A DNA stretch of 40,000 nucleotides from an uncultured Thermoleophilaceae bacterium (GTDB lineage Bacteria; Actinomycetota; Thermoleophilia; Solirubrobacterales; Thermoleophilaceae). The translations under genes were made by a program, and so were the position numbers. Location of the stretch: positions 674,596 to 714,595 of the forward strand of contig CAVYZJ010000005.1 in the NCBI GenBank assembly GCA_963772945.1, read 5' to 3'. This document shows positions 382-20,573 of this stretch, piece after piece. The notes under the pieces were generated by a model, which ran no database searches, was not told the origin of the DNA, and saw nothing but the letters and a program-made list of their open reading frames with translations. The first letter of the stretch is position 1; every line of letters begins with the position of its first letter.

Positions 382-1281
382 CTACGCCGCCACGTGCGGC
401 TCGATGAGGCCGACGGCCACCAGCCGATGGTGACAAAGGTCTACGAGGTGCTCGCGCGTTGCGGGTGGGATGGCGTCGCCCCAGGCCTCGGTGGCATCCT
501 CGGAGCGCGCGAGCAGATCGTCGAGGAGCTCTCGGGAGGGCTGAGCCTCGACCAGGCAGCGCAGGCCGAAGCCGATGTGCCAGCGCTCGTCGAGCTCGAC
601 GCGTTCCACGCCCTCGCGCACCCCGGGCAGGGCATCGTCGGCCAGGTACTGGCGCAGCGCGTGATGCGCGGCGTCGAAGACGATCCCCTCGAGCACCATG
701 TGATAGAGGGCGACGCCGTCGCCCAACCCGGCGCGGCCATCCGCGAGCTCCGCGGACATGGCCGGCAGCCGCTCCTCGAAGAGCTCGAGCAGCGCGGGTG
801 GGACGTGGGGCCGGGCCGCTTCGCGCCGTTCGGCCGGGGTGGCTCCGGGCAGCCCGAGCACCTCGGCGGCGATGCGGTCGAACCACTGCGCGTGGCGATC
901 CTCGTCGCGGCGCTGCAGGAAGAAGACCCAGGCCATCAGGCTCTCCTGTGAGGCCAAAGTCGCGTTCCTGGCCACGTCGGCGAACGGCGTGATGTGCTCG
1001 GAGACCGCGTTCTCGGCCACACAGAAGCCGGCGAAAAGAGTCGTGAGGTGGCGGCGACGCTCATCCGGGAGCTCCGGCCAAGCACGCGCGTCAGGGGTGA
1101 GATCGATGGCCGCCGGATCCCACTGTAAGCGGGCCACGAGCTTGGAGAAGAACTTGGGCCAGAAGCCGCGCCTCGGGAGCACGAAGTGCCCGCCCCACGT
1201 GCGTTCCCAGAACACCTTGTCAGCCATAGGGTCGAAAAGAGTATCCACCCACGGCCCACTCGATATCGTTGCTCGCGCCAA
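382..1281 (-). CDS. Ferritin-like di-metal carboxylate protein, ribonucleotide reductase R2-like / R2-like ligand-binding oxidase family
   Basis: There are two EXXH motifs (DEDRH, DERWH) plus the two extra carboxylate segments (CVAENAV, VLEGIVF), spaced as in class I RNR beta subunits and R2lox proteins. The start is uncertain: TTG 1281 (track), GTG 1248 or ATG 1227. Confidence 0.7.
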   Translation of the reverse strand: MARATISSGPWVDTLFDPMADKVFWERTWGGHFVLPRRGFWPKFFSKLVARLQWDPAAIDLTPDARAWPELPDERRRHLTTLFAGFCVAENAVSEHITPFADVARNATLASQESLMAWVFFLQRRDEDRHAQWFDRIAAEVLGLPGATPAERREAARPHVPPALLELFEERLPAMSAELADGRAGLGDGVALYHMVLEGIVFDAAHHALRQYLADDALPGVREGVERVELDERWHIGFGLRCLVEAQPSRELLDDLLARSEDATEAWGDAIPPATREHLVDLCHHRLVAVGLIEPHVAA

Positions 1282-2291
1282 TGTTGGAGCGAAGCATGCT
1301 TCTCGGCGGGGATGTTCAGGCGCGCCGGCCCTCGACCCACGTGAGCCTCTCGCGCGTCGGCGTAACCGGCGTCGAGAAGGTCATCCGCGTTCGGTCGAAC
1401 GGAGCCGAGCAGCTGTTCTATGCGGAGCTCGAGTGTTTCGTCGATCTCGGACCGGAGCAGAAGGGCGCGCACATGTCACGCTTCGAGGAGATCGTCAACG
1501 AGGCGATCGACGAGGTGATCCTCGGGGAGGCCGCCTTCAGGGCTGAGACGCTCGCCTCGCACATCGCGGAGCGCGTCCGGGACCGCCAGGACGGCCGCCG
1601 TGCCGAGGTGACGATCGCGGCGCGCTACCCCGAGCACAAGCGGGCCCCGGTTTCCGGCCTGCCGACCCAGGAGATCTACACGCTGTTGGGGTCGGCTGTG
1701 GCGTCCGCGCGCGGCACCCGGCGGCTCGTCGGGGTCGAGGCGCAGGGCATGACGGCCTGCCCGTGCGCCCAGGAGCTCGTGATGGACCGCTCGCAGGAGC
1801 GGTTGCGGGAGGACGGCTTCACCGACGACGAGATAGCCCGCGTCTTCGAGGCCGTGCCCGTCGCCACGCACAACCAGCGCGGCATAGGCACGCTCCACAT
1901 CGGCTGCCCGGAGGCCTGCGAGGAGGCCCCCGATGCCGAGGCCCTGCTCGAGATCGTCGAGGGCGCCATGAGCTCCGAGATCTACGAGCTGATGAAGCGC
2001 TCGGACGAGGTCGAGGTGGTCGAGAAGGCGCACCTTCGTCCTCGCTTCGTCGAGGACTGCGTACGCGAGATGATCCGCATGGCCATAGATCGCTTCGCCC
2101 CGCTCGGCGAGGACGCGTTCGTGTCGGCGCGGCAGGAGAACCTCGAGACGATCCACAAGCACAACGTGGTGGCCGAGCGCCACGGCCTGCTCGGCGAGCT
2201 GCGGCGTGAGATCGACTCCGGCGAGCGGGTGGGTCACGACGTGACGAAGCGCGAGTGGCTCGAGGACGGGGCCGGCCCGCAGAAGCCCTAG
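1281..2291 (+). CDS. mptA: GTP cyclohydrolase of the FolE2/MptA family (GTP cyclohydrolase IV, first step of methanopterin pterin synthesis)
   Basis: Family hallmarks are GGDVQ near the N-terminus, KGAHMSRF, GMTACPCAQE and ATHNQRG. Context with mptG/mptN/DHPS-like genes favours MptA over FolE2. The start is ATG 1281 or ATG 1296; the track uses TTG 1269. Confidence 0.85.
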   Translation: MLERSMLLGGDVQARRPSTHVSLSRVGVTGVEKVIRVRSNGAEQLFYAELECFVDLGPEQKGAHMSRFEEIVNEAIDEVILGEAAFRAETLASHIAERVRDRQDGRRAEVTIAARYPEHKRAPVSGLPTQEIYTLLGSAVASARGTRRLVGVEAQGMTACPCAQELVMDRSQERLREDGFTDDEIARVFEAVPVATHNQRGIGTLHIGCPEACEEAPDAEALLEIVEGAMSSEIYELMKRSDEVEVVEKAHLRPRFVEDCVREMIRMAIDRFAPLGEDAFVSARQENLETIHKHNVVAERHGLLGELRREIDSGERVGHDVTKREWLEDGAGPQKP

Positions 2292-3628
2292 AGGTGATGC
2301 AGGTACTCGGCGATCTCCCAGTCTGAGACCCAGGCGCGGTGGCGCTCGGTCTCGGAGCGCTTGAGCGCGAGGAACGTCTCGATGAGCTGCGGACCGAAGC
2401 ACTCGCGCAGGACCTGGTCGCTCTCGAGGGCGTCGAGGGCTGCGTCGAGCGAGGCGGGTAGGGCCGGGCCGACCCGCAAGCGGTAGGCATCGCCGTGCAG
2501 GGGCGGCGGCGGAGTCAGTGCCTTGCGCACGCCGTCGGCGCCGGCGGCCAGCACGGCGGCGATCGCCAGATACGGGTTGGCGGCGCCGTCGGCCACCCGG
2601 ATCTCGATGCGCGTCGCGTCGCCACGCTCCGGAGGGATGCGGATGAACGTGGTCCGGTTATCCCAGCCCCAGTTGGCGTGCGTGGGCGCCAGCGAGTCGG
2701 GCTGGAGGCGCCGGTAGGCGTTGACGGTGGGATTGAGGAACGCCATGAGCCCCGCTGCGTGAGCGAGCACCCCGGCCGTGAACCCGTGCAGCTCGGCGCT
2801 CACGCCTTCCCTGTCTCCCGGCCCATCGAACGCGTTGCGCTCCTCCCGGTTCAGTGAGACGTGGAGGTGGGTGCCCGAGCCACCCTCGTCGTTGAAGGGC
2901 TTGCCCATGAAGGTGGCCACGAGGTCGTGCTGCGCCGCAATGTCCTTGACAGTGGACTTGAGACGGAACGCTCCATCGGCGGCCCGCAGGGCATCGGCGT
3001 GGCGCAGATTGATCTCGTACTGGCTGTTCATGAACTCGTGGTTGGAGGCGAGGACCCCCACCCCGAGTGAAGCCAGCGCCTCGGTCATCTCCTGCACGAT
3101 GCCGCCGGGATCCGCCCGGGGACCCACCGTGTAGACCATGCTCGGCTCATCGAGGCGCCGCCGGATGCCGTGTGTTGCCGCCGGATCGCGTCGAAGCAGG
3201 AAGAACTCGAGCTCGGGGCCGACGATCGGGTCGAGCCCGGTCGCCCTCAGGTTCTCCACGACCCGGCGCAGGCTCCCGCGCGGGTCCGGGATGGGCGCTC
3301 CCCCGGCGGCCGGCTCCAGGTTCGCCAGGCAGCTCGCCACGCCCGGCTCCCATGGCAGCGTGGCCATGGTCGACAGGTCCGGACGGGCGACGAGGTCGGG
3401 ATAGCCCTCGGCGCGGCCGGCGACCGGTGTGTGCCGCAGGTCTGTGCCCATCACCGCCGCGCAGAAGAACAGGCCGCTCTCGAGCACGTGGTCGAACTCC
3501 GCGATGGGCACCTCCTTGCCGCGCGGGACGCCGTGGAGGTCGGGAAAGAGCAGGCGGATCGCCGTGACCGGCGTGCCGGCTGGGCGTTCGGTCATGCCCT
3601 CCGCGCGCGGGGTCGTGAAATCGGTCAT
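2288..3628 (-). CDS. Glutamine synthetase family (type I-like, GlnA3/GlnA4/GmaS-like) gamma-glutamyl ligase
   Basis: GS catalytic-domain motifs are present: GPELEFFL, NHEFMNSQYEINLRH, KPFNDEGGSGTHLHVSL and IRIPPERGDATRIEIRVADGAANPYL. ATG 3628 directly abuts the TAG stop (3629-3631) of the upstream gene. The stop shares the palindrome CTAG (2288-2291) with the mptA stop. Confidence 0.85.
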   Translation of the reverse strand: MTDFTTPRAEGMTERPAGTPVTAIRLLFPDLHGVPRGKEVPIAEFDHVLESGLFFCAAVMGTDLRHTPVAGRAEGYPDLVARPDLSTMATLPWEPGVASCLANLEPAAGGAPIPDPRGSLRRVVENLRATGLDPIVGPELEFFLLRRDPAATHGIRRRLDEPSMVYTVGPRADPGGIVQEMTEALASLGVGVLASNHEFMNSQYEINLRHADALRAADGAFRLKSTVKDIAAQHDLVATFMGKPFNDEGGSGTHLHVSLNREERNAFDGPGDREGVSAELHGFTAGVLAHAAGLMAFLNPTVNAYRRLQPDSLAPTHANWGWDNRTTFIRIPPERGDATRIEIRVADGAANPYLAIAAVLAAGADGVRKALTPPPPLHGDAYRLRVGPALPASLDAALDALESDQVLRECFGPQLIETFLALKRSETERHRAWVSDWEIAEYLHHL

Positions 3629-4705
3629 CTAGGCCAGGTGAATGCTCTCGGCGCCGTGCATGCGCAGGTGGTCCAGAGCGGTGCCGCCGGCCTCGCGCAG
3701 GCGCAGCCGCTCGACCAGCGGGGCGTAGCGCCCGCCGGCCAGGCCGTCCGCCAGCACGGCCGCGCCCTGCGCCGCCGTCTTGACACCCGGCCCCAGGCCG
3801 CCGGGGGCACGCACGGCCGCCACCCCGGCGAGCCGCTCCCTCAGCCGATCGATCAGGCCGGGAGCGCGCGCCAGACGGCCGGCGACGAGAATCTCGCGCG
3901 GCGCGGGAACCGAGACCGTCAGGGCGAGCGTGGCCTTCACCGCGCCCTCCTCGAGCGCGAGCCATCCTGCGCGGTGGCCGGGATCGCCTCGCACCGACTC
4001 GAGCGCACCGGGAGCGGAAAGGTCGATCTGGCCGCGCGGATCCAGCGCCCCGCCGCTGAAGACGGTCTCCTTGGAGATCGCCGCTCCCATCAGGTTGGCC
4101 ACCTCCGCGTCGAGCGCCCCACACGAGCGACCGCCGATAGGGGCGCAGGAGCCGCCGACCCCGTCGACGATCTGCCCGCCGTCGACAGCAAGCGCGGCGC
4201 TGAAAGCGCCGCCAAGCTCGAGCATGATGAACGAGGTCTCGTCATAGGCCAGTCCGAGCCGGTCCGCCTGGTCGGTGATGCACAGCGCCGCGCCGGCGAC
4301 CTTGTCGGCCGTCCCGAGGTCGATTCGGTTCCACTTGCGGTGGTCCGGGACGGTAGGCAGGTGGATCACCCCCGGGCCGAAGACCAGTGGGAGCCCGGCG
4401 CCGATGAGCGCGCGGATCATCCCGCGCATGCCGCCGACGCCGGCGCGCGCGCCCGCCTGGTCGCTCCGCAGCAGCAGCATGAGCGAAAGCTCGCGCTCCC
4501 CGACCCGCTCGCCAGGCACGAGCGGCAGCCCGTAGCCGGCGGGGCCCAGCGCGAGGTCGAGGGGACCCTGAGCCACGAGCGCGTCCACCAGCGGCGCCGG
4601 GTCGAGCGCCAGATCAGCCGACCTGAAGCTCTGCTGCGACAGCACCTCGCCGCCGTCGAGCGCGCAGACGTCGATCGAGACGGTGCCGGGGTCCACCCCG
4701 GCCAC
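3629..4705 (-). CDS. Actin-like (ASKHA) ATPase-fold protein, DUF1464-like; conserved unknown
   Basis: The N-terminal phosphate-1 type motif is AGVDPGTVSID. Further segments are PTVPDHRKWNRIDLGTADK and IMLELGGAFSAALAVDGG, as in archaeal/methylotroph DUF1464 proteins (recalled). I prefer GTG 4705, which leaves 19 nt after the mtd stop. The track ATG 4759 would overlap mtd by 35 nt. Confidence 0.65.
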   Translation of the reverse strand: MAGVDPGTVSIDVCALDGGEVLSQQSFRSADLALDPAPLVDALVAQGPLDLALGPAGYGLPLVPGERVGERELSLMLLLRSDQAGARAGVGGMRGMIRALIGAGLPLVFGPGVIHLPTVPDHRKWNRIDLGTADKVAGAALCITDQADRLGLAYDETSFIMLELGGAFSAALAVDGGQIVDGVGGSCAPIGGRSCGALDAEVANLMGAAISKETVFSGGALDPRGQIDLSAPGALESVRGDPGHRAGWLALEEGAVKATLALTVSVPAPREILVAGRLARAPGLIDRLRERLAGVAAVRAPGGLGPGVKTAAQGAAVLADGLAGGRYAPLVERLRLREAGGTALDHLRMHGAESIHLA

Positions 4706-4724
4706 CCGCGGACCGTGCGGCAAC

Positions 4725-5588
4725 TCAGACGATCTCTTTGGCCACGGCGTAGACGCCATCGACGTTGAGCACGAGGTCGTTGCTCTCGAAGAGCCGGCGC
4801 ACGCAGGCCTTGTGCACCTTCATCTTCTGTCCGCCGATGGCCAGCGCGCCGAGGACGAGCTTGCCCTCCCGCTCGACGAGATCGTCCCCGGCCTCGGTGC
4901 CCTCGATCCCGAGCGGCTCCGCCGCGTTGTAGTCGGCCAGAACCTCAATCGTGGGATTCGCGCTCCACACGTCCTGGCGCAGCAGCTCGATGCCGGCCGG
5001 CCCGCTGGCCAAGACGATGTTCGCATCCTCCAGTGCCGCCTCCATCTCCGCTCGGTCGGCCGCCTCAACAGTGTCAAGCCCGATCCGCTCCGCCACCGCC
5101 ATCCCGCGCGGCTTGCGGTAGGAGTCAGTGCCGAGGACGTCGCCCGGGATGGTTGTGGCAAATACCTCGCAGCCCTCTTCCTTGAGCAGGACGGCGGACC
5201 GCAGGCCGACCGGCCCGACGCCCACGATCACCGCGCGCTTGCCGCTCAGGTCGCGGTCCTTTGCGATCAGCGCGACGGCCGTGGCCGCCGTGGTGTTGCA
5301 GCCGTCGGAATCGAGCATCGCGGACAGGCGGAAGGGGCCGAAGTACGCCCCCTCCACCTGCTCGAGAACCTCCTCGCCCGCGCCCACGTCCGACCCGCCG
5401 ACCCAGACCGCCATCGAGGAGTCGCCGGGAGCGCGCGTGAAGAACGCTCCCTGAACGAGCGCCTGTACCGCCTCCGGCGTCACGCTGCCGTGACTGAGCA
5501 GGACATCGACATCCGCGTCCTGGGCCACGATCGCGTCGAACGGGCTGGGATGTTGATCGGTGTCGAGCTGTAGAAGGACCTTCTTCAC
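4725..5588 (-). CDS. mtdB: NAD(P)-dependent methylene-tetrahydromethanopterin dehydrogenase (MtdA/MtdB family)
   Basis: The 287-aa protein is recognisable as MtdA/MtdB. Its N-terminal half reads LLQLDTDQHPSPFD...VWVGGSD and it has the Rossmann loop RAVIVGVGPVGLRSA. It lies between fae and H4MPT genes. The MtdB versus MtdA choice rests on context only. The start is GTG. Confidence 0.8.
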   Translation of the reverse strand: MKKVLLQLDTDQHPSPFDAIVAQDADVDVLLSHGSVTPEAVQALVQGAFFTRAPGDSSMAVWVGGSDVGAGEEVLEQVEGAYFGPFRLSAMLDSDGCNTTAATAVALIAKDRDLSGKRAVIVGVGPVGLRSAVLLKEEGCEVFATTIPGDVLGTDSYRKPRGMAVAERIGLDTVEAADRAEMEAALEDANIVLASGPAGIELLRQDVWSANPTIEVLADYNAAEPLGIEGTEAGDDLVEREGKLVLGALAIGGQKMKVHKACVRRLFESNDLVLNVDGVYAVAKEIV

Positions 5589-5615: not shown

Positions 5616-6128
5616 CTAGCCCTCGACGCCGCCGGCGAACGGGTGCCGCGCCTCGGCCACCCCTTCGATCACGGTGCTCGCGGCGGGCTCGTTGGCCATC
5701 GCGCGCGCGATCGACTCCTTGGTGGCCTCGTAGTTGTAGTCGAAGATCTTCTTGTCGTCCTCGGCCAGCCAGTGGATGAAGACGCCCACGATGATGCAGA
5801 GGTCGTCGGCATCCGACTCGGAGATCACCCCGTCGCGCACCGAGTCGACGACGGCCCGTGCCACCGCCGCCTGGGCGGGCCCGAACATCTGCCCGACCTG
5901 CTTCTCACCCCTGATCGTCACCTTGTTCGCCATGAGCGTGTCGGGCTTCGCGGGCAGGTTGGGCGCGACCACGGCCAGCAGGTTCGTGTGGCCCTCCTTC
6001 TGGTTCAGGAGTGCAGCGGCGAACGCTTGGCCGACCGGCCCGTCCTTGGATCCGACCAATAGATCGATGTGAGCGACCTCGTTGCCGTCGCCGACAAGGG
6101 ACTCCCCGACCGACATGGACATGGCCAT
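5616..6128 (-). CDS. fae: Formaldehyde-activating enzyme (5,6,7,8-tetrahydromethanopterin hydro-lyase)
   Basis: The 170-aa protein has characteristic Fae segments [30 protein letters not shown] and [11 protein letters not shown] strong SD AAGGGAGGGG (minus strand, 6135-6144) lies 6 nt upstream of ATG 6128. Confidence 0.92.
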
Positions 6129-10030: not shown

Positions 10031-10842
10031 CGCTGACTCTGACGCTGCGCGAGCCGCCGGCCGTGCCGCTCGAGACGGAGGGCCTCACCCCGGACCGGCT
10101 GGCCGGCCTTCGCCGGGGGGAGATCGAGGCTATCGGTGTCTGGCACGGCAACCGCCGGGCGCAGCTGACCGACTTCTTCGCGGTGTCGGGCGACGGCGAC
10201 GAGGAGCTGCGGGTTGAGGGCGACCTGCGGCGCGTGAAGTTCCTCGGGGCGGGCATGACCGCCGGCCGGCTCACGGTGGCGGGCGATGCGGGGATGCACA
10301 CCGGCTCGGAGATGCGCGGAGGCGAGCTGGTGGTCGAGGGTGACGTCGGCGACTTCGCGGGCACGGCCATGCGTGATGGCCGGCTCGTGGTGCGAGGCTC
10401 CACCGGCCACCACCTCGGCGGGGCGCATCCGGGCGAGCGCACCGGGATGCGTGGCGGCGAGATCCTCGTGCACGGGGACGCCGGCGACCAGGTGGGAGCA
10501 GGCCTCCGGCGCGGGCTGATCGCCGTCGCGGGACGCGTCGGCGAGGGCGCCGGGCTGCGCATGCTGGCGGGCACGATCGTCGCTCTGGGGGAGCTGGGCG
10601 CCCGGCCGGGCGCGGCCATGCGGCGAGGCACGATCGTGGCGATGTCGCAGGCCACGCTGCTGCCCACCTTCGGCTTCGCGTGCACGTACCGGCCGCCCTT
10701 CCTCCGGCTGTACCTTCGCCACCTGCGCGAGCTGGGCCTGCCTCTGACCGACGAGCAGATTGGGGGCCGTTACGCGCGCTGGTGCGGAGACGGACTCGAG
10801 CTCCGGCGGGGTGAGATCCTGATTCTCGAGGCCGGCGAGTGA
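10027..10842 (+). CDS. fhcC: Formyltransferase/hydrolase complex subunit C (FwdC homologue, beta-helix repeats)
   Basis: Gly-rich beta-helix repeats are present (MRGGELVVEGDVGDFAG, MRDGRLVVRGSTG, MRGGEILVHGDAGDQVG, LRRGLIAVAG). ATG 10027 overlaps the fhcD stop (ATGA). The long track ORF 9181..10842 is this frame read through fhcD out of frame. Confidence 0.9.
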   Translation: MTLTLTLREPPAVPLETEGLTPDRLAGLRRGEIEAIGVWHGNRRAQLTDFFAVSGDGDEELRVEGDLRRVKFLGAGMTAGRLTVAGDAGMHTGSEMRGGELVVEGDVGDFAGTAMRDGRLVVRGSTGHHLGGAHPGERTGMRGGEILVHGDAGDQVGAGLRRGLIAVAGRVGEGAGLRMLAGTIVALGELGARPGAAMRRGTIVAMSQATLLPTFGFACTYRPPFLRLYLRHLRELGLPLTDEQIGGRYARWCGDGLELRRGEILILEAGE

Positions 10843-12923
10843 GCACCCTCGCGGCCCGTCTCGAGCGTGCCGCCTACGGTCTCGAGTAGCGGGCGGGCCT
10901 TCAGGAGCATCTCCTCCAGCTCGGCCTCGGGGTCCGACGCCGCGACGATCGCCCCGCCCGCGCCGATGGCGAGGCCGTCCGGGGAAGCCACGAGGGTGCG
11001 GATCACGACGCTGAAGTCGGCGGTGCCGTTGACGGCGAGGAACCCCAGGGCGCCGGAGTAGACGCCGCGGGGACGGCCCTCGATCCGGTCGATGATCTCC
11101 AGCGTGCGCAGCTTCGGCGCGCCCGTCATCGAGCCGGGGGGGAAGGCCGCGCGCACGGCGTCAATCGCGTCCGACCCCTCGCGCAGGCGGCCGCGGACGA
11201 CGGTGACCATCTGGTGGACCGTCGCGTACGGCTCCACGACCATCAGGGCGGGGACTTCCACCGTGCCGAGTGATGAGACCCGGCCGAGGTCGTTGCGCAC
11301 CAGGTCGGCAATCATCAGGTTCTCGGCGCGTGTCTTCTTGTCGCGGCGGAGCTCGGCCGCCCGGCAGGCGTCCTCGAACGGCTCAGCCACCCGGGCCGCG
11401 GTCCCCTTCATGGGCCGCGACTCCACGACATGGTGGCGGTCGACACACAGAAAGCGCTCCGGCGAGGAGCTGAGCACCGAGACCTCGCCGAGCCGCAGCA
11501 GCGCAGCGAAAGGTGCCGGGTTGCGCGTTCTCAATGCACGGTAGGCCGCCCAGGGGTCGAACCTTTCCTCGCTGCGCAGCTCGGTAGTCAGGCAGACCTC
11601 GTAGGTTTCGCCCTCGACTATCTCGCTCCGACAGGCGGCGATGTTGGCCAGGTACGCCTCCGGGGACTCACGGGGCTCGAAGCGCAGCGTGCCGGGCGGC
11701 GCCGGGGGCGGTGGCAGCGGCGGCGGCTCGCGCGCGATCGCGCGCAGTCGCTCCTCGGTCGCGGCCAGCCAAGTGTCGGCCGCCTCCGCGCCGGCGGAGT
11801 CCGCGAGCGCGAGCAGATAGACGTGACGCTCGCCGTGGTCAAAGGCGATCAGCCGGTCGCAGAACACGAGCGTCGCGTCCGGCATTGGCGAGACGTGCTC
11901 CGGCCGGCCGCCGCACTCGGCCTTGAGCTCGTATCCGAGGTAGCCGGCGAAGCCGCAGGTGAAGTCGAAGGGAAGCTCCGGAGCGTCGGCGCGCAGGCGC
12001 GCGAGCTCGTCTCGGCAATAGTCGAGCACGCTCGCCGTTCGCGCCTCCTGGCCCGACTCGCGGTCGATGACTAGGGTCCGCTCCTCGACGTCGTAGCGCA
12101 CCACCTGGCCGAGCGGGCCGTCGGGCCCGCCGATGAACGAGAAGCGGCCCACGCCCGGATCCGGGCGCGCGCTGTCGAGCCAGACCGCGTGCTCGCGGCT
12201 GGTGTAGAGCGCGCCGAACACCGCCTCGGGCTCGCACCAGCTCTCCAGCCGGCGATGGTGGATGCGCGCACCTACGGGCACGGCGGGCCGTGCCCGGTGC
12301 TGACGCTTGGCGGGCCGTCGCGCGGCAGGCGCGCTCCGGACGCGGGTGAGGTCGCGGAAGTTCTCCAGCAGGCGGCGGCCATGCCGGGTGCTCACCGACT
12401 CGGGATGGAACTGCACGCCGAACAGGGGGCGCGCGCGGTGTTCCAGGCCCATGATCACCCCGTCGGGCGTCCAGGCGCTGACCCTCAGCTCCGCGGGCAC
12501 AGCACCGACCACCAGCGAGTGGTAGCGCACGGCGAGAAAGCCCTGCGGGATCCCGACGAAGAGCGAGCCGCCGTCATGGTGGATCGGGCTCAGGCGGCCG
12601 TGCATGACCTCCTCGGCGTGTTCGACCGTGCCGCCGGTTACGTGGGCGAGAGCCTGATGGCCCAGACAGACGCCGAGCACCGGCACGTCGGCGCGGCAGA
12701 GCGCGTCCAGGGAGACTCCGACGTCGCGCGCGTGCTCCGGCCGGCCCGGGCCCGGTGAGATGACCACGTTGTCGGCGCCCAGGCCGGCGAGCTCTTCCCA
12801 CGGAAGCTCGTCGTTGCGCACGACCACGGGCTCGCTGTCGTTGACCTCCCCGAGCAGATGGAAGAGGTTGAATGTGTACGAGTCGTAGTTGTCGATCAGA
12901 AGCGTGCGCATCCCGGCCCACAT
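10770..12923 (-). CDS. pabB: Fused aminodeoxychorismate synthase PabA-PabB (glutamine amidotransferase + chorismate-binding component)
   Basis: The N-terminal GATase has LLIDNYDSYTFNL, the GVCLGHQAL catalytic Cys and FGVQFHPES. The C-terminal chorismate-utilising domain has SSSPERFL, PMKGTAAR, GSMTGAPK and RGVYSGALGF. The start is ATG 12923 (MWAGMRTLL) or ATG 12911. The upstream 338 codons of the track ORF are antisense read-through. Confidence 0.85.
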   Translation of the reverse strand: MWAGMRTLLIDNYDSYTFNLFHLLGEVNDSEPVVVRNDELPWEELAGLGADNVVISPGPGRPEHARDVGVSLDALCRADVPVLGVCLGHQALAHVTGGTVEHAEEVMHGRLSPIHHDGGSLFVGIPQGFLAVRYHSLVVGAVPAELRVSAWTPDGVIMGLEHRARPLFGVQFHPESVSTRHGRRLLENFRDLTRVRSAPAARRPAKRQHRARPAVPVGARIHHRRLESWCEPEAVFGALYTSREHAVWLDSARPDPGVGRFSFIGGPDGPLGQVVRYDVEERTLVIDRESGQEARTASVLDYCRDELARLRADAPELPFDFTCGFAGYLGYELKAECGGRPEHVSPMPDATLVFCDRLIAFDHGERHVYLLALADSAGAEAADTWLAATEERLRAIAREPPPLPPPPAPPGTLRFEPRESPEAYLANIAACRSEIVEGETYEVCLTTELRSEERFDPWAAYRALRTRNPAPFAALLRLGEVSVLSSSPERFLCVDRHHVVESRPMKGTAARVAEPFEDACRAAELRRDKKTRAENLMIADLVRNDLGRVSSLGTVEVPALMVVEPYATVHQMVTVVRGRLREGSDAIDAVRAAFPPGSMTGAPKLRTLEIIDRIEGRPRGVYSGALGFLAVNGTADFSVVIRTLVASPDGLAIGAGGAIVAASDPEAELEEMLLKARPLLETVGGTLETGREGAHSPASRIRISPRRSSSPSPHQRA

Positions 12924-12944
12924 TGTCGCGCCCCCAGGACGTCG

Positions 12945-13832
12945 GTGAGCAGCCGGCGGCTGCGGGTCGCGGTTTTGGGCTCCACCGGCGGCTGGCATGC
13001 CGCTCGCCTCGAACGGGCGCTGACCGCGCGCGGCCACGAGTGCGCGTTCGCGCCCGTCACCCGAATGGTGGGCCGCATCGGAAGCGGACTCGGCGTGCGC
13101 TCGCGCGAGCTGGCCCTCGACGGCTGCGACATCGTGCTCGTACGCGGCATCCCGCGCGGGTCGCTCGAGCAGGTCGTCTTCCGGGTGGATGTGCTCCATG
13201 CGCTCGCGGCCGCCGGCGTGCGGGCGGTCAACAACGCGGACGCGATCGAGCGGACCGTCGACAAGTTTCTCGCCTCGAGCCTGCTGGCAAACGCCGGCCT
13301 GCCCACCCCGCGCACGATCGTCTGCGAGCGGGCCGCCGAAGCGCTGGAGGCGTACTCCGAGCTCGGCGGCGACGTGATCGTCAAGCCGCTGTTCGGCTCG
13401 ATGGGATCCGGCATCGTTCGCATCGAGCATCCCGACGTGGCGGAGCGGGTCTTTCGAGCGCTGGAGCTCGAGCGGGCCGTCTACTACCTCCAGGAGACCC
13501 TGCCGCACGCGGGCCGCGACGTTCGAGCGCTGGTTGTCGGCGATCGCGTGGTGGCCGCCGTCGAGCGGAGCGGCGAAGGCTGGCGCACGAACCTCGCGCG
13601 CGGCGGGCGGGCGAGCCCGGTGCGGCTTGACGCCCGACAGGAGCGCCTGTGTGTGCCGGCGGCGGCTGCCCTCGGTGCCGATTACGCCGGCGTCGACCTC
13701 CTTCGGACACCTGACGGGCGCGACTACGTGCTCGAGGTGAACGGCATCCCCGGCTGGCAGGGCGTGGAGCGTGCGACGGGGGTTGACGTGGCAGCCGCGC
13801 TTGCACAGCACCTGGAGACGGTCACCGGCTGA
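12945..13832 (+). CDS. mptN: RimK-type ATP-grasp ligase, tetrahydromethanopterin:alpha-L-glutamate ligase-like
   Basis: The RimK-family layout includes DIVLVRGIP, DKFLASSLLANAGLPTP, VIVKPLFGSMGSG, GEGWRTNLARGG, YAGVDLL and LEVNGIPGWQG. I prefer in-frame GTG 12945. The track start 12858 would overlap pabAB head-on. Confidence 0.8.
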   Translation: MSSRRLRVAVLGSTGGWHAARLERALTARGHECAFAPVTRMVGRIGSGLGVRSRELALDGCDIVLVRGIPRGSLEQVVFRVDVLHALAAAGVRAVNNADAIERTVDKFLASSLLANAGLPTPRTIVCERAAEALEAYSELGGDVIVKPLFGSMGSGIVRIEHPDVAERVFRALELERAVYYLQETLPHAGRDVRALVVGDRVVAAVERSGEGWRTNLARGGRASPVRLDARQERLCVPAAAALGADYAGVDLLRTPDGRDYVLEVNGIPGWQGVERATGVDVAAALAQHLETVTG

Positions 13833-14541
13833 GGTCCGTCGCCGCGATCGCCCCGCTGTGCAGGGCGGTGGCGACGAGCGCGCCGGCCGCGCCCACCTCG
13901 GCCAAGGCGTGCAGGTCCGAGGGGTCGCGAACGCCACCGCCGGCCAGCAGATCCAGCTCGGGAAAGCGGGCGCAGAGCTCGCCCATCAGCGCGAGGTCGG
14001 GGCCCGAGCCGGTCCCCACGCGCGCCAGGTCGAGAACGATCACCTCCCTCAGGCCCGAGTGGGCCAGTTGCGCTAGCGCCTCGGCCGCTCCGAGCCGAGC
14101 CAGTTCGGGGTCGGGCGAGAGGACGCGGCCCGCCCGGAGGTCGAGGCTGAGCACGAGCGGGGCATCGGGAAGCACGGCCCGCAGCCGAGCGAGAGCAGCT
14201 TGGCCCGGAAGCGTCTCGGTGCCGATCACGACCCGCGCCGCGCCCTGCTCGAGCAGCCGCCGAACCGCCGCGACCTCCGTGACGCCGGCATCGACCATCA
14301 CCCGCGCCTCGCGCGCCAGGTCGGCGACGAGCGCACGCTGCCCCGATCCGCCCGCGATCGCGTCCAGATCGGCGACGTAGAGCTCATCGAGTCCGAGGCT
14401 TTCGCGGACGGCGAGCGTGACCTGGACGGGGTGGGAGCCGGCACACAGCCTGCTGCGCAGAGGGCGATAGCGTTCGCGCTCCCCGCGCACGGCATGCACG
14501 GCGGCTCCGCTCTTGAGATCGATGACCGGGATCACTCGCAC
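13822..14541 (-). CDS. HisA/HisF-family (beta/alpha)8 barrel protein of the H4MPT-linked gene set; function unknown
   Basis: The HisA-like pattern is VIPVIDLKSGAAVHAVRG, ELYVADLDAIAGG, VVIGTETL, IVLDLARVGTGSGPD and LLAGGGVRD. GTG 14541 is preceded by GAGG 8 nt upstream (alternative GTG 14535). The upstream part of the 585-aa track ORF is antisense to the next gene. Confidence 0.75.
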   Translation of the reverse strand: MRVIPVIDLKSGAAVHAVRGERERYRPLRSRLCAGSHPVQVTLAVRESLGLDELYVADLDAIAGGSGQRALVADLAREARVMVDAGVTEVAAVRRLLEQGAARVVIGTETLPGQAALARLRAVLPDAPLVLSLDLRAGRVLSPDPELARLGAAEALAQLAHSGLREVIVLDLARVGTGSGPDLALMGELCARFPELDLLAGGGVRDPSDLHALAEVGAAGALVATALHSGAIAATDLSR

Positions 14542-14574: not shown

Positions 14575-15591
14575 ATGGGCGGCGTGATCGGCCTCGACGT
14601 TGGGGGTGCCAACACGAAGGCGGTGTGGCGGAACGGGCGCGAGCGGCGCGCCGTCTCGCGACCGTTCGAGGTCTGGCGCGACCGTGAGGCACTTTCCGCC
14701 GTGCTCCGCGAGGTCGTGGCGGCAGTGGCGCCGGAGTCCGTGGACGCTGTGGCACTGACCACCACCGCTGAGCTCTCGGATGCCTTCCGCACCAAGCGGG
14801 AGGGGGTGGAGTTCGTGCTCGACGCCGCGGCTGCGGCGTTGGGCGACCGGCCGCTGCTGGCCTTCACGACCGCCGGCGAGCTGGTCTCCCTCGCGGAGGC
14901 GCGGCAGCGCGCGCCCGAGGTGGCGGCCGCCAACTGGTTGGCGGCCGCTCGCGCGATCGCCGGGGTGTACCCGGATGCCCTGATGGTCGACGTCGGCAGC
15001 ACCACCACCGACGTCGTTCCGATCGCGGGCGGCCAGGTCGCCGCCTACGGCCGCACCGACCTCGATCGCCTGCTGGCCGGCGAGCTCGTCTACACAGGCG
15101 CGCTTCGCACCAACCTCGCGGCGATCGCGCCCCGGGTGCCCGTGCGCGGCCGCGCGTGCGCGGTCGCCTCGGAGCTGTTCGCGATCAGTGCGGACGTGCA
15201 CCTGATACTCGGCCACCTCACGCCCGGCGCGTACACGTGCGCCACCCCGGACGGGCGGCCGGCGACGGTGGAGTTCGCGCGCGAGCGGGTGGCTCGGCTG
15301 GTGTGCGCCGATGCCGACCAGATTGCCGCGGAGGAGATCGATGCGATCGCCACGTTCGTGCACGGCGAGCAGGTGCACCAGATCGAGGAGGCGGCCGGCC
15401 GAGTGAGGGAGCGATTCGACGGCGACCCGTCTGTCGTCCCGCTGGGCGCTGGAGCGTTTCTCGCGCGCGAGGCTGCCGAGCGGCTGGGGCTTACGACCGT
15501 GGAGCTGCCGTGGAGCGCGGCCGAGCGGGACGCGGCGCCCGCCGCCGCGCTCGCCGAACTTCTGGCCGGGCGGCTCCACCCGCAGTGCTGA
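14575..15591 (+). CDS. Hydantoinase_A-like 'H4MPT-linked C1 transfer pathway protein', MfnF-like (methanofuran/methylofuran assembly)
   Basis: ASKHA/hydantoinase-like motifs are VIGLDVGGANTK and MVDVGSTTTDVVPI. SD GGAGAGG lies 7 nt upstream of ATG 14575. Equating this family with MfnF is from memory and should be verified. Confidence 0.7.
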   Translation: MGGVIGLDVGGANTKAVWRNGRERRAVSRPFEVWRDREALSAVLREVVAAVAPESVDAVALTTTAELSDAFRTKREGVEFVLDAAAAALGDRPLLAFTTAGELVSLAEARQRAPEVAAANWLAAARAIAGVYPDALMVDVGSTTTDVVPIAGGQVAAYGRTDLDRLLAGELVYTGALRTNLAAIAPRVPVRGRACAVASELFAISADVHLILGHLTPGAYTCATPDGRPATVEFARERVARLVCADADQIAAEEIDAIATFVHGEQVHQIEEAAGRVRERFDGDPSVVPLGAGAFLAREAAERLGLTTVELPWSAAERDAAPAAALAELLAGRLHPQC

Positions 15592-16256
15592 CCGTCGTCA
15601 AGCTCGGTGGTGGGGTCGCCCGCGAGGCGGGCGACGGCGCGCTGCGAACGCTGTGCCAAGCGATCGGCGACGCCGGCGCCCGCCACCCACTGCTCGTCGT
15701 GCCGGGCGGCGCGGCCTTCGCGGACGGGGTGCGCGAGCAGGATGGCCGCTTCGACCTCCGCGCGGCGACTTCCCACCGGATGGCGATCCTCGCGATGGAC
15801 CAGTTCGGCTGGCTGCTCTGCGACCTGATCCCCGGCTCGGTGCCGTGCACGGACCTCGCCGCCGCCCACGCGTGCCGCGGGACGCCGGTCCTGCTGCCCT
15901 CGGGCGTGCTGGCCGGGGATCCGCTGCCCGCCTCATGGGCCGTCACCTCCGACTCGATCGCTGCCTGGATCGCCGGTGAGGTTCGCCCCTCCCGCCTGGT
16001 GTTCGTCAAGCCGGTGGCCGGGCTCTACCGAGAATGGCCGGCGAACGGCAAGCCGCTCGCCCGCCTGAGCGTGGCCGAGCTCGCCGACCTGCGTGCAGCG
16101 GGCCGGGCCGCGGGCGTCGACGAGCACCTGCCGGAGGCGCTGCGCGCCGCAGGCGTGGAGGCGTGGGTGATCGACGGCCGGGAGCCGGGCCGGCTCGTGG
16201 CATTGCTCGAGCACGGCAGCACGCAGGGAACGCTGGTGCAACCGGAGCCGTGCTGA
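15585..16256 (+). CDS. Amino-acid-kinase-fold protein, MfnE-like (furan methyl-phosphate kinase candidate)
   Basis: The N-terminal motif VVKLGGGV and the segment LLVVPGGAAFAD match the Asp/Glu/uridylate kinase fold. GTG 15585 overlaps the stop of the upstream gene (GTGCTGA), implying coupling. The MfnE assignment is recalled, not tested. Confidence 0.65.
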   Translation: MLTVVKLGGGVAREAGDGALRTLCQAIGDAGARHPLLVVPGGAAFADGVREQDGRFDLRAATSHRMAILAMDQFGWLLCDLIPGSVPCTDLAAAHACRGTPVLLPSGVLAGDPLPASWAVTSDSIAAWIAGEVRPSRLVFVKPVAGLYREWPANGKPLARLSVAELADLRAAGRAAGVDEHLPEALRAAGVEAWVIDGREPGRLVALLEHGSTQGTLVQPEPC

Positions 16257-16281: not shown

Positions 16282-16992
16282 TCAGGACGGTGCCGCGCAT
16301 AGCTCGCGCAGCCGCCCGATCCGCTCGCCGTCGAGAGGCGCGGTGCGCCGCCCGTCGCGACAGGCCGCCGAGCGCACGCCTGCTATGTCGGCGCCCGTGG
16401 CCCGCACCGCGCTCAGGTCCTCCGCGCGCAGTGCTCCGGCGAGCGCCATCTCCAGGCCCGCGGCGTGCGCATCGGCCACCAGCGTCGTGAGTGCGTCGGG
16501 GTCGAGCCACTCGAACAGCCCGCGGCCGTCCTTGAGCGCGGTGTCGAGCAGGCAGCCGCCTACGCCCGCACGGCGCGCCGCCGCGACGAGGGCCCCCGGC
16601 GGCAAAGGCCGGCCGGGCACGCGCTCGGCGTCGGCGTAGGCAGCGGCGATCACGTCCGCCCCGCCGTCGAGGGTGTTCCGAACCGCGGAGAGCACCGCCA
16701 CGGCCCTGTCCTCGGTCGACGTTCCCCACAGCCCGACCTTCACGTAGGCGGCGCCGGACCGCACGGCCCCCAGCGCGGCCAGCGCGGCGGTGCCGGGCAG
16801 GTCGGGCAGGTCGCCAATGGCGGCGCTCACCGGACGCTGGGGCGGCACCACCTCCCGGACACGCTCGATCACGTCCGGCGCCGGGGCACCCAGCGAACCC
16901 TCGGCCGGGTTCTTCACGTCGACGATGTCGACACCTCCCTCGACGGCCACGGACGCCTCGTGGGCGTCGGTGACGCTCACTAGCAACCTCAT
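16282..16992 (-). CDS. mfnB: (5-formylfuran-3-yl)methyl phosphate synthase (MfnB, DUF556 family)
   Basis: MRLLVSV...GGVDIVDVKNPAEGSLGA contains the Schiff-base Lys motif. Later segments are YVKVGL and LLDTALKDG, as in MfnB. ATG 16992 overlaps the mptG stop (ATGA). The track ORF was trimmed from 17133. Confidence 0.8.
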   Translation of the reverse strand: MRLLVSVTDAHEASVAVEGGVDIVDVKNPAEGSLGAPAPDVIERVREVVPPQRPVSAAIGDLPDLPGTAALAALGAVRSGAAYVKVGLWGTSTEDRAVAVLSAVRNTLDGGADVIAAAYADAERVPGRPLPPGALVAAARRAGVGGCLLDTALKDGRGLFEWLDPDALTTLVADAHAAGLEMALAGALRAEDLSAVRATGADIAGVRSAACRDGRRTAPLDGERIGRLRELCAAPS

Positions 16993-18508: not shown

Positions 18509-19455
18509 CCCCTGAAGGACCGCTCGAGGACGCCGACGTCAACGGCCCCGGCGTGAAAGCTGCGCCCGCTCGACACGCTCGTCAGGCGCACCTCGGCCGG
18601 GCTGAAGAGCAGCGGGTCGATCTCGTAGAAGTCGCCGCCGGCTTGCTCGAGTACGCGCGCGAAGGGTTCGCCATGGTCCCGCGAGGCGGACGCGGGCAGG
18701 CGCGGCACGATCGACTCGAGCTCCTCGTCGGGGGCATCGACGCTGAGCTCCACCTGGCCGCCGTAGAGGACGGCGTCGTTGGTGCGACCGATCGCCTCGC
18801 CGTCGTCTCGGGCGACCGGCGGGAGCGGACAGCTCCCGAAACCGCTCACCACTCGCCCGACGTCGAAGTCGAGCTCGTGGAGCTTGTGCAGCGCGGTCTC
18901 GACCACGCGCGCGGCGATCTGAACCCCGCCGGCCAGGCTGGCGGTCGGCGCGAACAGCAGCGTCAGGTCCCCTGCCGTGACACCGGCGCGCTCCGCCACA
19001 TACTCGGCGAGCGGTTCCGGTGGCGGCTCGCGCGCCTCGAGGCACAGCGTCGCGCTCTGCGCCCGCTCGTCGACGTCGAGATCGTCGTAGAGGTCCTCGG
19101 CCCGGATCAAGGCGCGGCCCGGCCCGCTGGCCATCGCGAAGTAGTCGTCCCGGTCCAACTTCCAGCCCGCGTACTGAGAGGCCAGACAGGCAAGCGCCGG
19201 CCGATCGGTCACAACCGTGACCCCGGGAAGCCAGCGGCCCTCGAGCACCAACGGGACGAACGACACCCAGCCCATGCCACCCATGCAGATCTGGGCGAAG
19301 CGGCGGCCGGCCTCGAAGCCACCGGCGACCGCGCTGCCGCAGTCGATCAGGCGCGTGCCGTTCGGGAGCGTCGTGACCTCCACACGCAGGGCGTCGGCCT
19401 CGGCGGCCAGGCGGTCGGCGAGCTCATGTGCGCGATCGTTTAGCGAGGGGGTCAC
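18505..19455 (-). CDS. mch: Methenyltetrahydromethanopterin cyclohydrolase
   Basis: The 316-aa protein has Mch-typical segments ACLASQYAGW, ASGPGRAL and GRTNDAVLYGG. GTG 19455 overlaps the upstream stop (GTGA). Confidence 0.9.
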   Translation of the reverse strand: MTPSLNDRAHELADRLAAEADALRVEVTTLPNGTRLIDCGSAVAGGFEAGRRFAQICMGGMGWVSFVPLVLEGRWLPGVTVVTDRPALACLASQYAGWKLDRDDYFAMASGPGRALIRAEDLYDDLDVDERAQSATLCLEAREPPPEPLAEYVAERAGVTAGDLTLLFAPTASLAGGVQIAARVVETALHKLHELDFDVGRVVSGFGSCPLPPVARDDGEAIGRTNDAVLYGGQVELSVDAPDEELESIVPRLPASASRDHGEPFARVLEQAGGDFYEIDPLLFSPAEVRLTSVSSGRSFHAGAVDVGVLERSFRG

Positions 19456-20573
19456 GATGCGGCCTGAGCATAAGCCTCTCGCTCACCAAGCTCGGTGCGC
19501 AGCGCGGAGGCGCGCTCCTCGAGGTCGGCGAGCACGGCGTGCGGGGAGCCCTGGGTCGAGACGAGCGTGCAGATCGGATGCCCGGCCGCGATCCGCTCGT
19601 GCGGGTGAGGCACGTCGCGAATGCCGCGCGCCGGCCAGCCGCGGGTATCCCCGACGCGCAGGTTACGGGTGGCGAACAGGATCGCCTTGCCGGCCGCCCG
19701 GCGCGGTGCCGGAGCGGGAGCGACCGGGGGCAGACGCCCGGCGCAACCCTCGAGGTGGGCTTCGAAGACGCCCACCCGGTGCGCCGCCTCGACGGGTTCA
19801 AGTGAACCCGTGGGCCGGGGGTTGACCTCGACGACCCAGGCTCGCTCGCCGTCCCACACGAAGTCCACGCCGAACAGCCCCCGGAATCCGAACTGGACAG
19901 CCAGGTGCGCGCAGATCGTCAGCGCGGCGGCGGCCAGCTCGCCTCGCTGCTTCTCCTCGAGCCGCGGCGGCACGAGGTTGCCGCACCACGCGTAGCCGCG
20001 CGCGCCGAGCCCGCGGTGCCCGATCAGCTGCTCGCTCACGCCGAGCACGACGGCCGAGCGGCCGTCGGCGACCGCAGCGGCCGAGCAGGCCAGCCCGGAG
20101 ATCCGCTCCTGCACCACGACATCCCCGTCGAGCGCCCCGCCGCGCCACTGCCGGATGCCCCGCCCGCCGCCGCCGCGCACCGGCTTGCGCAGCCAGCGGC
20201 GCGAGGGCTCCGCGAGCCGGGGAGCGTCGCTGGCGGCGAATGTCTGCGGATACGCGAGGCCGGCTGCCCGCAGGGAGGCGCCCAGGACAGCCGGGTCACG
20301 CACGCGCTCGAGCGTCTCGGGCTGACACCCGAGCAGGGTCCGGCCGGACGCGAGCCGGGCCACGAGCCCCGGCTGGTTCTCCAGGCCCGCGCCGTAGATC
20401 ACGCTCGGCGCGGAGATCTCCTCCGCGGCGTCCACCAACGTCGCCATCCCGCCCCGCCCGCCCAGATCGCGCAGCACGGACACGCTCGGGCAGAGCCGCT
20501 GCAGGTCGAAATCCCCGAAGCGGTCGAGCGCCACCACCTCGTGCCCGGCACTCATCGCCAGCTGGGCGAGCAT
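19452..20573 (-). CDS. ATP-grasp ligase of the H4MPT/methanofuran gene set (COG2232-type, MfnD-like candidate)
   Basis: The ATP-grasp core has VVQERISG, GNLVPP and FGVDFVWDGERAWVVEVNPRP. The coordinates use the first ATG (20573). The conserved N-terminus (LEPILLVAVSAR) continues in frame upstream with no ATG/GTG/TTG, so see the finding on a possible CTG start at 20615. Confidence 0.75.
   Translation of the reverse strand: MLAQLAMSAGHEVVALDRFGDFDLQRLCPSVSVLRDLGGRGGMATLVDAAEEISAPSVIYGAGLENQPGLVARLASGRTLLGCQPETLERVRDPAVLGASLRAAGLAYPQTFAASDAPRLAEPSRRWLRKPVRGGGGRGIRQWRGGALDGDVVVQERISGLACSAAAVADGRSAVVLGVSEQLIGHRGLGARGYAWCGNLVPPRLEEKQRGELAAAALTICAHLAVQFGFRGLFGVDFVWDGERAWVVEVNPRPTGSLEPVEAAHRVGVFEAHLEGCAGRLPPVAPAPAPRRAAGKAILFATRNLRVGDTRGWPARGIRDVPHPHERIAAGHPICTLVSTQGSPHAVLADLEERASALRTELGEREAYAQAAS

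Follow-up and report, generated by a model that had tools for sequence, protein, structure and literature searches.

We analyzed a window of 40,000 nucleotides, i.e. the whole stretch between positions 674,596 and 714,595 of contig CAVYZJ010000005.1 (assembly GCA_963772945.1), from an uncultured Thermoleophilaceae bacterium of the order Solirubrobacterales. The window is a full tetrahydromethanopterin (H4MPT)/methylofuran/pyrroloquinoline quinone (PQQ) island in a Thermoleophilia genome with 70% GC, and our subject is a gene of the glutamine synthetase (GS) family within it. This GS-like gene (446 aa, GC3 of 0.89) is the last cistron of a minus-strand operon that begins with fae and continues with mtd and a DUF1464 gene (Table 1). 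An original prediction, made from the nucleotides alone, had described this anatomy and the abutting codons at its last junction, and both can be read directly: the DUF1464 stop codon TAG (3631-3629) is followed at once by the GS-like ATG (3628-3626). The four genes overlap or are separated by at most 27 nt. No terminator-like site was found on the minus strand within the operon, in a scan that is of limited value in DNA with 70% GC. The palindrome CTAG at 2288-2291 is common to the stops of the GS-like gene and of the convergent mptA, and a divergent fhcBADC adjoins the fae operon. The island further comprises pabAB, mptG, DUF447, mch, XoxF-type PQQ dehydrogenase and pqqBCDE genes, and genes resembling rimK/mptN, hisA/F, mfnF, mfnE, mfnB, citG and dihydropteroate synthase (DHPS), together with an ATP-grasp_3 gene.

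The GS-like protein matches the Pfam family Gln-synt_C with 348 bits (E of 7e-104), and misses every NCBIfam equivalog cut-off: 313 bits against 469.6 for GmaS (TIGR03105), 302 against 650 for gamma-glutamylputrescine synthetase (GGputSyn, NF045547), and 298 against 429 for GlnA (TIGR00653). We aligned it with E. coli GlnA, PuuA, and the six other GS paralogues of the genome, and use E. coli numbering throughout. The protein retains every ligand of metal, ATP, and glutamate (E129, E131, E212, E220, H269, H271, R321, R339, R344, R355, E357, and R359), and none of the 17 fae-linked copies has lost a catalytic residue. The protein shares these ligands with GlnA, but neither the score nor the ammonium site. 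In the latter, whose inspection had been suggested with the prediction, small or hydrophobic residues stand in place of the original ones (D50C, S53V, Y179V, E207L, N264G, E327L), whereas the two GlnA-type paralogues of the genome retain D, S, Y, and E at D50', S53', Y179, and E327. The protein does have a PuuA-like insertion after residue 53, in the Asp50' loop, although its score is far below the cut-off for PuuA, which forms a neighbouring clade outside its own. The best sequence match in the PDB was a true GSI-alpha (264 bits), before a GmaS structure (228 bits) and NpaA1 (8WWU, 174 bits). By these residues and scores, the protein should be a catalytically intact GS-fold ligase, predicted to form gamma-glutamyl phosphate. 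Since its ligands are kept and its ammonium pocket is rebuilt, it would pass this intermediate to an amine that exceeds ammonia in size and hydrophobicity. Hence the prediction of a GS-family ligase that makes no glutamine holds, and we consider that the sequence places the enzyme outside both the glutamine synthetases and GmaS.

The closest relatives of the ligase lie in a different genetic setting. Across the phylum, sequences with 61-69% identity were found in a single other family, Rubrobacteraceae, and the next ones have at most 47%. The Rubrobacteraceae loci have the order GntR-FAH-ligase-P450, without H4MPT genes. When species-representative genomes were scanned, 70 loci were found in actinobacteria, namely in Solirubrobacterales, Rubrobacteraceae, Streptomyces, Amycolatopsis, Nocardioides, Mycobacterium, and Nanopelagicales. 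A cytochrome P450 gene is in the flank of 60 of the 70 and an FAH-family gene in 59, while H4MPT genes are in none. Within the order of the window, homologues at 59-72% identity are present in genomes without DUF1464. There, P450 adjoins the ligase in 19/19 loci, and 12 of these have the full series FAH, ferredoxin reductase, ligase, P450, VOC dioxygenase, ADC, and aldehyde dehydrogenase. In its general form the operon follows a GntR gene and reads FAH, ferredoxin reductase, sometimes ferredoxin, GS-like ligase, P450, extradiol dioxygenase, ADC-like, and aldehyde dehydrogenase, with HpaB or LigB in some variants. A Streptomyces variant has the order FAH, LigB, aldehyde dehydrogenase, ADC, ferredoxin reductase, ferredoxin, ligase, and P450, and a Solirubrobacterales variant the order aminotransferase, GntR, FAH, CMD, VOC, HpaB, ligase, permease, P450, and aldehyde dehydrogenase. 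The identities of the neighbours (HpaB, LigB, VOC, ADC, Aldedh) were assigned by Pfam. We found no characterised member of this clade of ligases. The operon looks like a gamma-glutamylation route for the catabolism of aromatic amines because it encodes ring-cleavage enzymes and HpaB-type hydroxylases, and the acceptor in this source clade is plausibly an aromatic amine of the arylethylamine type.

The tree ties the window's ligase to these operons. The 17 fae-linked copies form one clade (support of 100, stem of 0.13) nested among the P450-operon ligases, with SH-aLRT values of 95-100, and the nearest operon members are 75-77% identical to them. Phylogenetic placement against the known amine ligases, which had been suggested with the prediction, gave neither GmaS nor PuuA as the host group: PuuA, GmaS, and GlnA come successively further out. 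The pocket agrees with the tree, as the pattern C50, V53, V179, G264, and L327 is the same in all P450-linked relatives, and no specificity-determining position in the pocket separates fae-linked from operon-linked copies. We rejected neofunctionalisation after the capture, given the lack of pocket-specific substitutions and the short stem branch. The window's ligase belongs to the P450-operon clade by tree and pocket, but has no adjacent P450, ferredoxin reductase, dioxygenase, or FAH gene, none of which is in the window. It had been held that a tight clustering with GlnA paralogues found irrespective of neighbourhood would speak against a functional link to the operon. One half of this objection stands, since the ligase clusters tightly (at most 77% identity, nested) with enzymes found in genomes without H4MPT genes; these are P450-operon ligases.

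PuuA, the gamma-glutamylputrescine synthetase of E. coli, resembles the window's ligase in its GS fold, intact catalytic core, lost ammonium site, and insertion after residue 53. It branches just outside the ligase's clade, is only about 33-35% identical, and has a less hydrophobic pocket (P/V/V/A/Y against C/V/V/G/L), and the window's ligase has no puuBCD-type neighbours. A GS-like ligase acts first, and a P450 then oxidises the gamma-glutamyl amide, in IpuC/IpuD of Pseudomonas sp. KIE171 and in the systems for piperidine (pip) and morpholine (mor). Compared by description, the source clade is alike in that its ligase is directly followed by a P450 with ferredoxin and reductase. Its operon differs by the additional extradiol-dioxygenase, FAH, ADC, and HpaB genes, which point to an aromatic substrate rather than a small alkyl or cyclic amine, and the window copy differs by having no P450. 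The gamma-glutamyl-arylamide synthetases NpaA1 (PDB 8WWU), AtdA1, and TdnQ are GS-like enzymes that glutamylate aromatic amines in an enlarged hydrophobic pocket, partly built from the N-terminal loop of the neighbouring subunit. Their partner is a Rieske dioxygenase, whereas that of the source clade is a P450, and the match of the window's ligase to NpaA1 is below those to GSI-alpha and GmaS. Actinobacterial GS-like amine ligases acting on polyamines or ethanolamide are known as GlnA2, GlnA3, and GlnA4 of Streptomyces and GlnA3 of M. tuberculosis (a likeness drawn by description); the relatives that we found in Streptomyces sit in accessory clusters for aromatic catabolism. The glnA3 gene of M. 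tuberculosis (Rv1878) presumably lies near cyp140 (Rv1880c), which would resemble our Mycobacterium locus L087.

The distribution of the fae-linked copy is narrow. Among 401 genomes of the order, 27 have DUF1464. The ligase directly follows DUF1464 in 15 of the 17 DUF1464-positive genomes of genus g1 plus g226; these 15 include one interrupted by a contig end, one with a spacer of 1.2 kb (G416), and one in which the match is truncated (G491). Of the two others, G668 has an R2-like oxidase gene after DUF1464 instead of the ligase, and G503 an IS481-type transposase at the site. In the sister family f2 the ligase follows DUF1464 in none of 10 genomes, and in families f5 and f56 in none of 6, all of them DUF1464-positive. 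DUF1464 was within H4MPT/fhc clusters in 7/7 loci read from 8 other Thermoleophilia genomes, with no ligase nearby. The view that GS-like genes are unusual in H4MPT clusters is thus borne out by f2 (0/10) and f5/f56 (0/6), and these counts, together with the absences in 2/17 genomes of its own genus group, led us to reject the ligase as a conserved or core member of the H4MPT/methylofuran cluster. At E<=1e-120, no further copy turned up in genomes with the fae-linked one.

Where it occurs, the arrangement is stable. The order fae-mtd-DUF1464-GS is found in 5/5 metagenomic relatives (77-93% identity), with a different downstream gene in each, and the DUF1464/ligase junction in relatives is either an 8-nt overlap or a gap of 9-11 nt. 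The dN/dS of the GS-like gene (0.24-0.38) is similar to those of fae, mtd, and DUF1464, and by this measure the gene is under purifying selection. Tree and distribution indicate that the fae-linked copy is a single recent capture. Two genomes show local departures. The spacer of G416 (L116, 4489-5685), which uncouples the translation of DUF1464 and ligase, has on its other strand an ORF with proline-rich repeats, and G659 has two diverged DUF1464-ligase pairs on contigs C12 and C13 of one metagenome-assembled genome, due to either duplication or a mixture of strains.

We propose that, in a single genus-level lineage of Thermoleophilia, a genus of soil actinobacteria, one transfer brought the ligase gene alone from a P450 catabolic operon onto the 3' end of fae-mtd-DUF1464. 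The enzyme would produce a gamma-glutamyl amide by coupling glutamate, through its gamma-carboxyl, to a hydrophobic primary amine that is aromatic or aryl-alkyl and of the tyramine or arylethylamine type. It would be an add-on to the one-carbon (C1) module rather than a core part of it. Taken jointly, and leaving the use of the product aside, we hold the enzyme class, the origin in a catabolic operon, and the status of lineage-specific add-on to be likely. The enzyme most likely gamma-glutamylates an aryl(alkyl)amine: since no pocket residue separates the fae-linked copy from its catabolic relatives, their acceptor was probably retained. Three observations weigh against this proposal. The acceptor is deduced from neighbouring genes only. 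Orthologues of the P450, dioxygenase (VOC or LigB), ADC, and HpaB partners were not found in this genome (75% complete), such that a purely catabolic use of the product would have no visible continuation. Finally, that the gene has kept one fixed position throughout the lineage suggests a link of some kind with the operon. As for the product, our tentative first choice, to which we give a little less than an even chance, is the stand-alone capture of a free arylamine during C1 growth, for nitrogen salvage or protection.

A second possibility, less likely than the first, is that the ligase is an analogue of MfnD. A glutamyl ligase for such cofactors was also among the roles named in the prediction, and our analysis neither shows nor refutes it. 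It would make gamma-glutamyl-tyramine, or glutamylate the tyramine amine of the furan core, for an MfnF-like enzyme, and so attach methylofuran's first glutamate. According to Hemmann et al. (2021, PMC8141765), it is not known which enzyme joins tyrosine or tyramine to the first glutamate in strains that lack a homologue of MfnD. The island has MfnB-, MfnE-, MfnF-, MyfA-, and MyfB-like genes, and none of the order's 401 genomes yielded an MfnD-like gene; in this genome, the MfnD model finds nothing better than an ATP-grasp_3 protein (20.6 bits). The absence of a catabolic continuation, the island with MfnB-, MfnE-, and MfnF-like genes but no MfnD, and the gap acknowledged in that study together make this role attractive. 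The fixed place in the fae operon beside the divergent fhcBADC and the lack of catabolic partners in this genome also fit, and the HpaB, extradiol dioxygenase, and FAH genes around the source-clade ligases suggest acceptors of the arylethylamine type. However, ten H4MPT-positive f2 genomes, as well as G668 and G503, have neither the GS-like nor an MfnD-like gene, so the order must have some other way to accomplish this step. We found no clear MfnA (by its motifs, the top TIGR03812 match resembles a glutamate decarboxylase), and tyramine as the acceptor is itself an inference. MfnD, the archaeal tyramine--L-glutamate ligase, is an ATP-grasp enzyme whose reaction, the formation of gamma-glutamyl-tyramine, the window's ligase may share within a furan-cofactor island. 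The window's ligase has a GS fold and falls outside NF040722; as the folds are unrelated, it could only be a functional analogue and no member of the family.

In families f5 and f56, an MfnD-like ATP-grasp gene (NF040722, 106 bits) adjoins the mfnF/mfnE-like genes. We considered a clean anticorrelation between this gene and the ligase, and rejected it as only partial, since the MfnD-like gene is missing throughout the order, also where the ligase is absent. The f5/f56 clusters (L019, L020, L023) contain three ATP-grasp genes (MyfA-like, RimK/MyfB-like, and MfnD-like), and the window's order keeps the first two only. In G145, an R2-like oxidase gene separates the HisA/F-like gene from the MfnF-like one, at the site that the MfnD-like gene has in other Thermoleophilia families.

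It is also conceivable, if rather improbable, that the ligase is a passenger, i.e. that it landed by chance at the 3' end of the operon and has an unrelated amine role, or is slowly decaying, with no functional tie to C1 metabolism. Its terminal position would fit such a history, as would its absence from G668, the transposase at the G503 site, the G416 spacer, and the truncated match of G491. This is difficult to reconcile with a dN/dS equal to that of core genes, with catalytic residues intact in every copy, and with a position that is kept while the downstream genes vary. We leave a small chance to uses of the product other than these.

The prediction had put forward GmaS, with gamma-glutamylmethylamide feeding methylamine carbon to formaldehyde and H4MPT, and this reading did not survive. 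The likeness is that of a GS-like ligase tied to C1 metabolism: the family, the operon common with fae, and an organism that apparently uses methylamine. Yet the protein is below the TIGR03105 cut-off, which the paralogues at C5:143027 and C5:667956 pass with 595 and 547 bits. The search for the N-methylglutamate pathway that had been suggested did find its locus (C5:146-164 kb), beside the 595-bit paralogue, which adjoins Glu_synthase-type and SoxD genes; the window's gene has no mgsABC/mgdABCD linkage. The pocket C/V/V/G/L is unlike the A-T/A/C-A/T/W of the genome's GmaS-type paralogues, GmaS (TIGR03105; PDB 7CQL, 9QUR) branches outside the group made of PuuA and the ligase's clade, and the closest relatives of the ligase are in aromatic catabolic operons. 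We therefore rejected a role in the N-methylglutamate pathway, which is at another locus with its own GmaS-type genes, and consider the GmaS reading very improbable. Genes for a cytosine/purine-family permease, an arginase-family hydrolase, and a creatininase share the operon of the 547-bit GmaS-type ligase, which lies about 8 kb upstream of the window (within C5:655000-674600), and a 1252-aa PocR-GAF-PucR regulator adjoins it. This operon might supply methylamine from creatinine or a guanidino compound. Just as remote is a ligase for the glutamyl or hydroxyglutaryl tail of a methanopterin-type cofactor: the gene does adjoin mptA inside an H4MPT island, but the island already has a RimK/MptN-like ligase, other H4MPT clusters examined lack the gene, and GS-fold enzymes link the gamma-carboxyl of glutamate to an amine, unlike the established MptN chemistry of sarcinapterin-type tails.

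Features of the window that bear on these readings are listed in Table 1. A 1055-aa ORF on the minus strand (10770-13937) is an artefact of high GC content: PabAB, with its GATase and chorismate-binding domains, covers about 10770-12905, and the remainder is antisense to the RimK/MptN-like (MyfB-type) gene. An R2-like di-iron oxidase, weakly matched by R2lox models, travels with the island in the order (window 382-1281, L113 6999-7997, and L118 3907-4830, all on the minus strand). The H4MPT clusters of Thermoleophilia constantly include DUF1464, an ASKHA-type protein annotated as "predicted butyrate kinase", whose gene is mostly flanked by the DHPS-like gene and fhcD. Of the control genomes, that of Sulfolobus acidocaldarius encodes the family, and those of M. 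jannaschii and M. acetivorans do not. We regard DUF1464 as a candidate enzyme of cofactor biosynthesis. A PDB sequence search with DUF1464 gave no match, a literature search on it gave nothing relevant, and its AlphaFold2 model has a pLDDT of 37.6, too low for use (alignment of 13 rows, 80-87% identical).

Table 1. Positions of the ligase, its operon, and cofactor genes in the window.
Feature	Position	Strand	Evidence
mptA (archaeal-type GTP cyclohydrolase), convergent	1269..2291	+	TIGR00294 287 bits, above cut-off
Putative GS-family gamma-glutamyl-amine ligase, last cistron	2288..3628	-	Gln-synt_C match; residues; tree
TAGATG junction, DUF1464 stop abutting GS-like start	3626..3631	-	sequence
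DUF1464 (ASKHA-type)	3629..4759 (start 4759, 4723 or 4705 by gene call)	-	PF07318 251 bits
mtd (methylene-H4MPT dehydrogenase)	4725..5588	-	Pfam Mpt_N
fae (formaldehyde-activating enzyme), first cistron	5616..6128	-	TIGR03126 243 bits, above cut-off
RimK/MptN-like glutamate ligase (MyfB/Orf5 type)	12945..13832	+	MptN model 246 bits; rimK_fam above cut-off; 86% identical to L008 gene
MfnF-like (Orf9 type), would consume gamma-glutamyl-tyramine	14575..15591	+	TIGR03123 320 bits, above cut-off; MfnF model 231 bits
MfnE-like kinase	15585..16256	+	NF040622 95 bits
MfnB-like (5-formylfuran-3-yl)methyl phosphate synthase	16282..16992	-	NF002575 225 bits
ATP-grasp_3 protein (probably MyfA/OrfY type)	19452..20573	-	best MfnD-model match of the genome

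If neither the MfnD-like role nor the aromatic-amine route proposed for the source operon is confirmed, the locus would be a case of ordinary accessory-gene capture at the 3' end of an operon. If the ligase does act as an analogue of MfnD, the first methylofuran glutamate step of this lineage would be filled, which is the gap acknowledged in bacteria without MfnD (PMC8141765). The ligase is in this respect a concrete candidate for the ligation of the first glutamate in an actinobacterial methylotroph lineage. The operon of its source clade, apparently uncharacterised, is widespread and occurs in Streptomyces, Rubrobacter, Solirubrobacterales, Nocardioides, Mycobacterium, and the freshwater Nanopelagicales.

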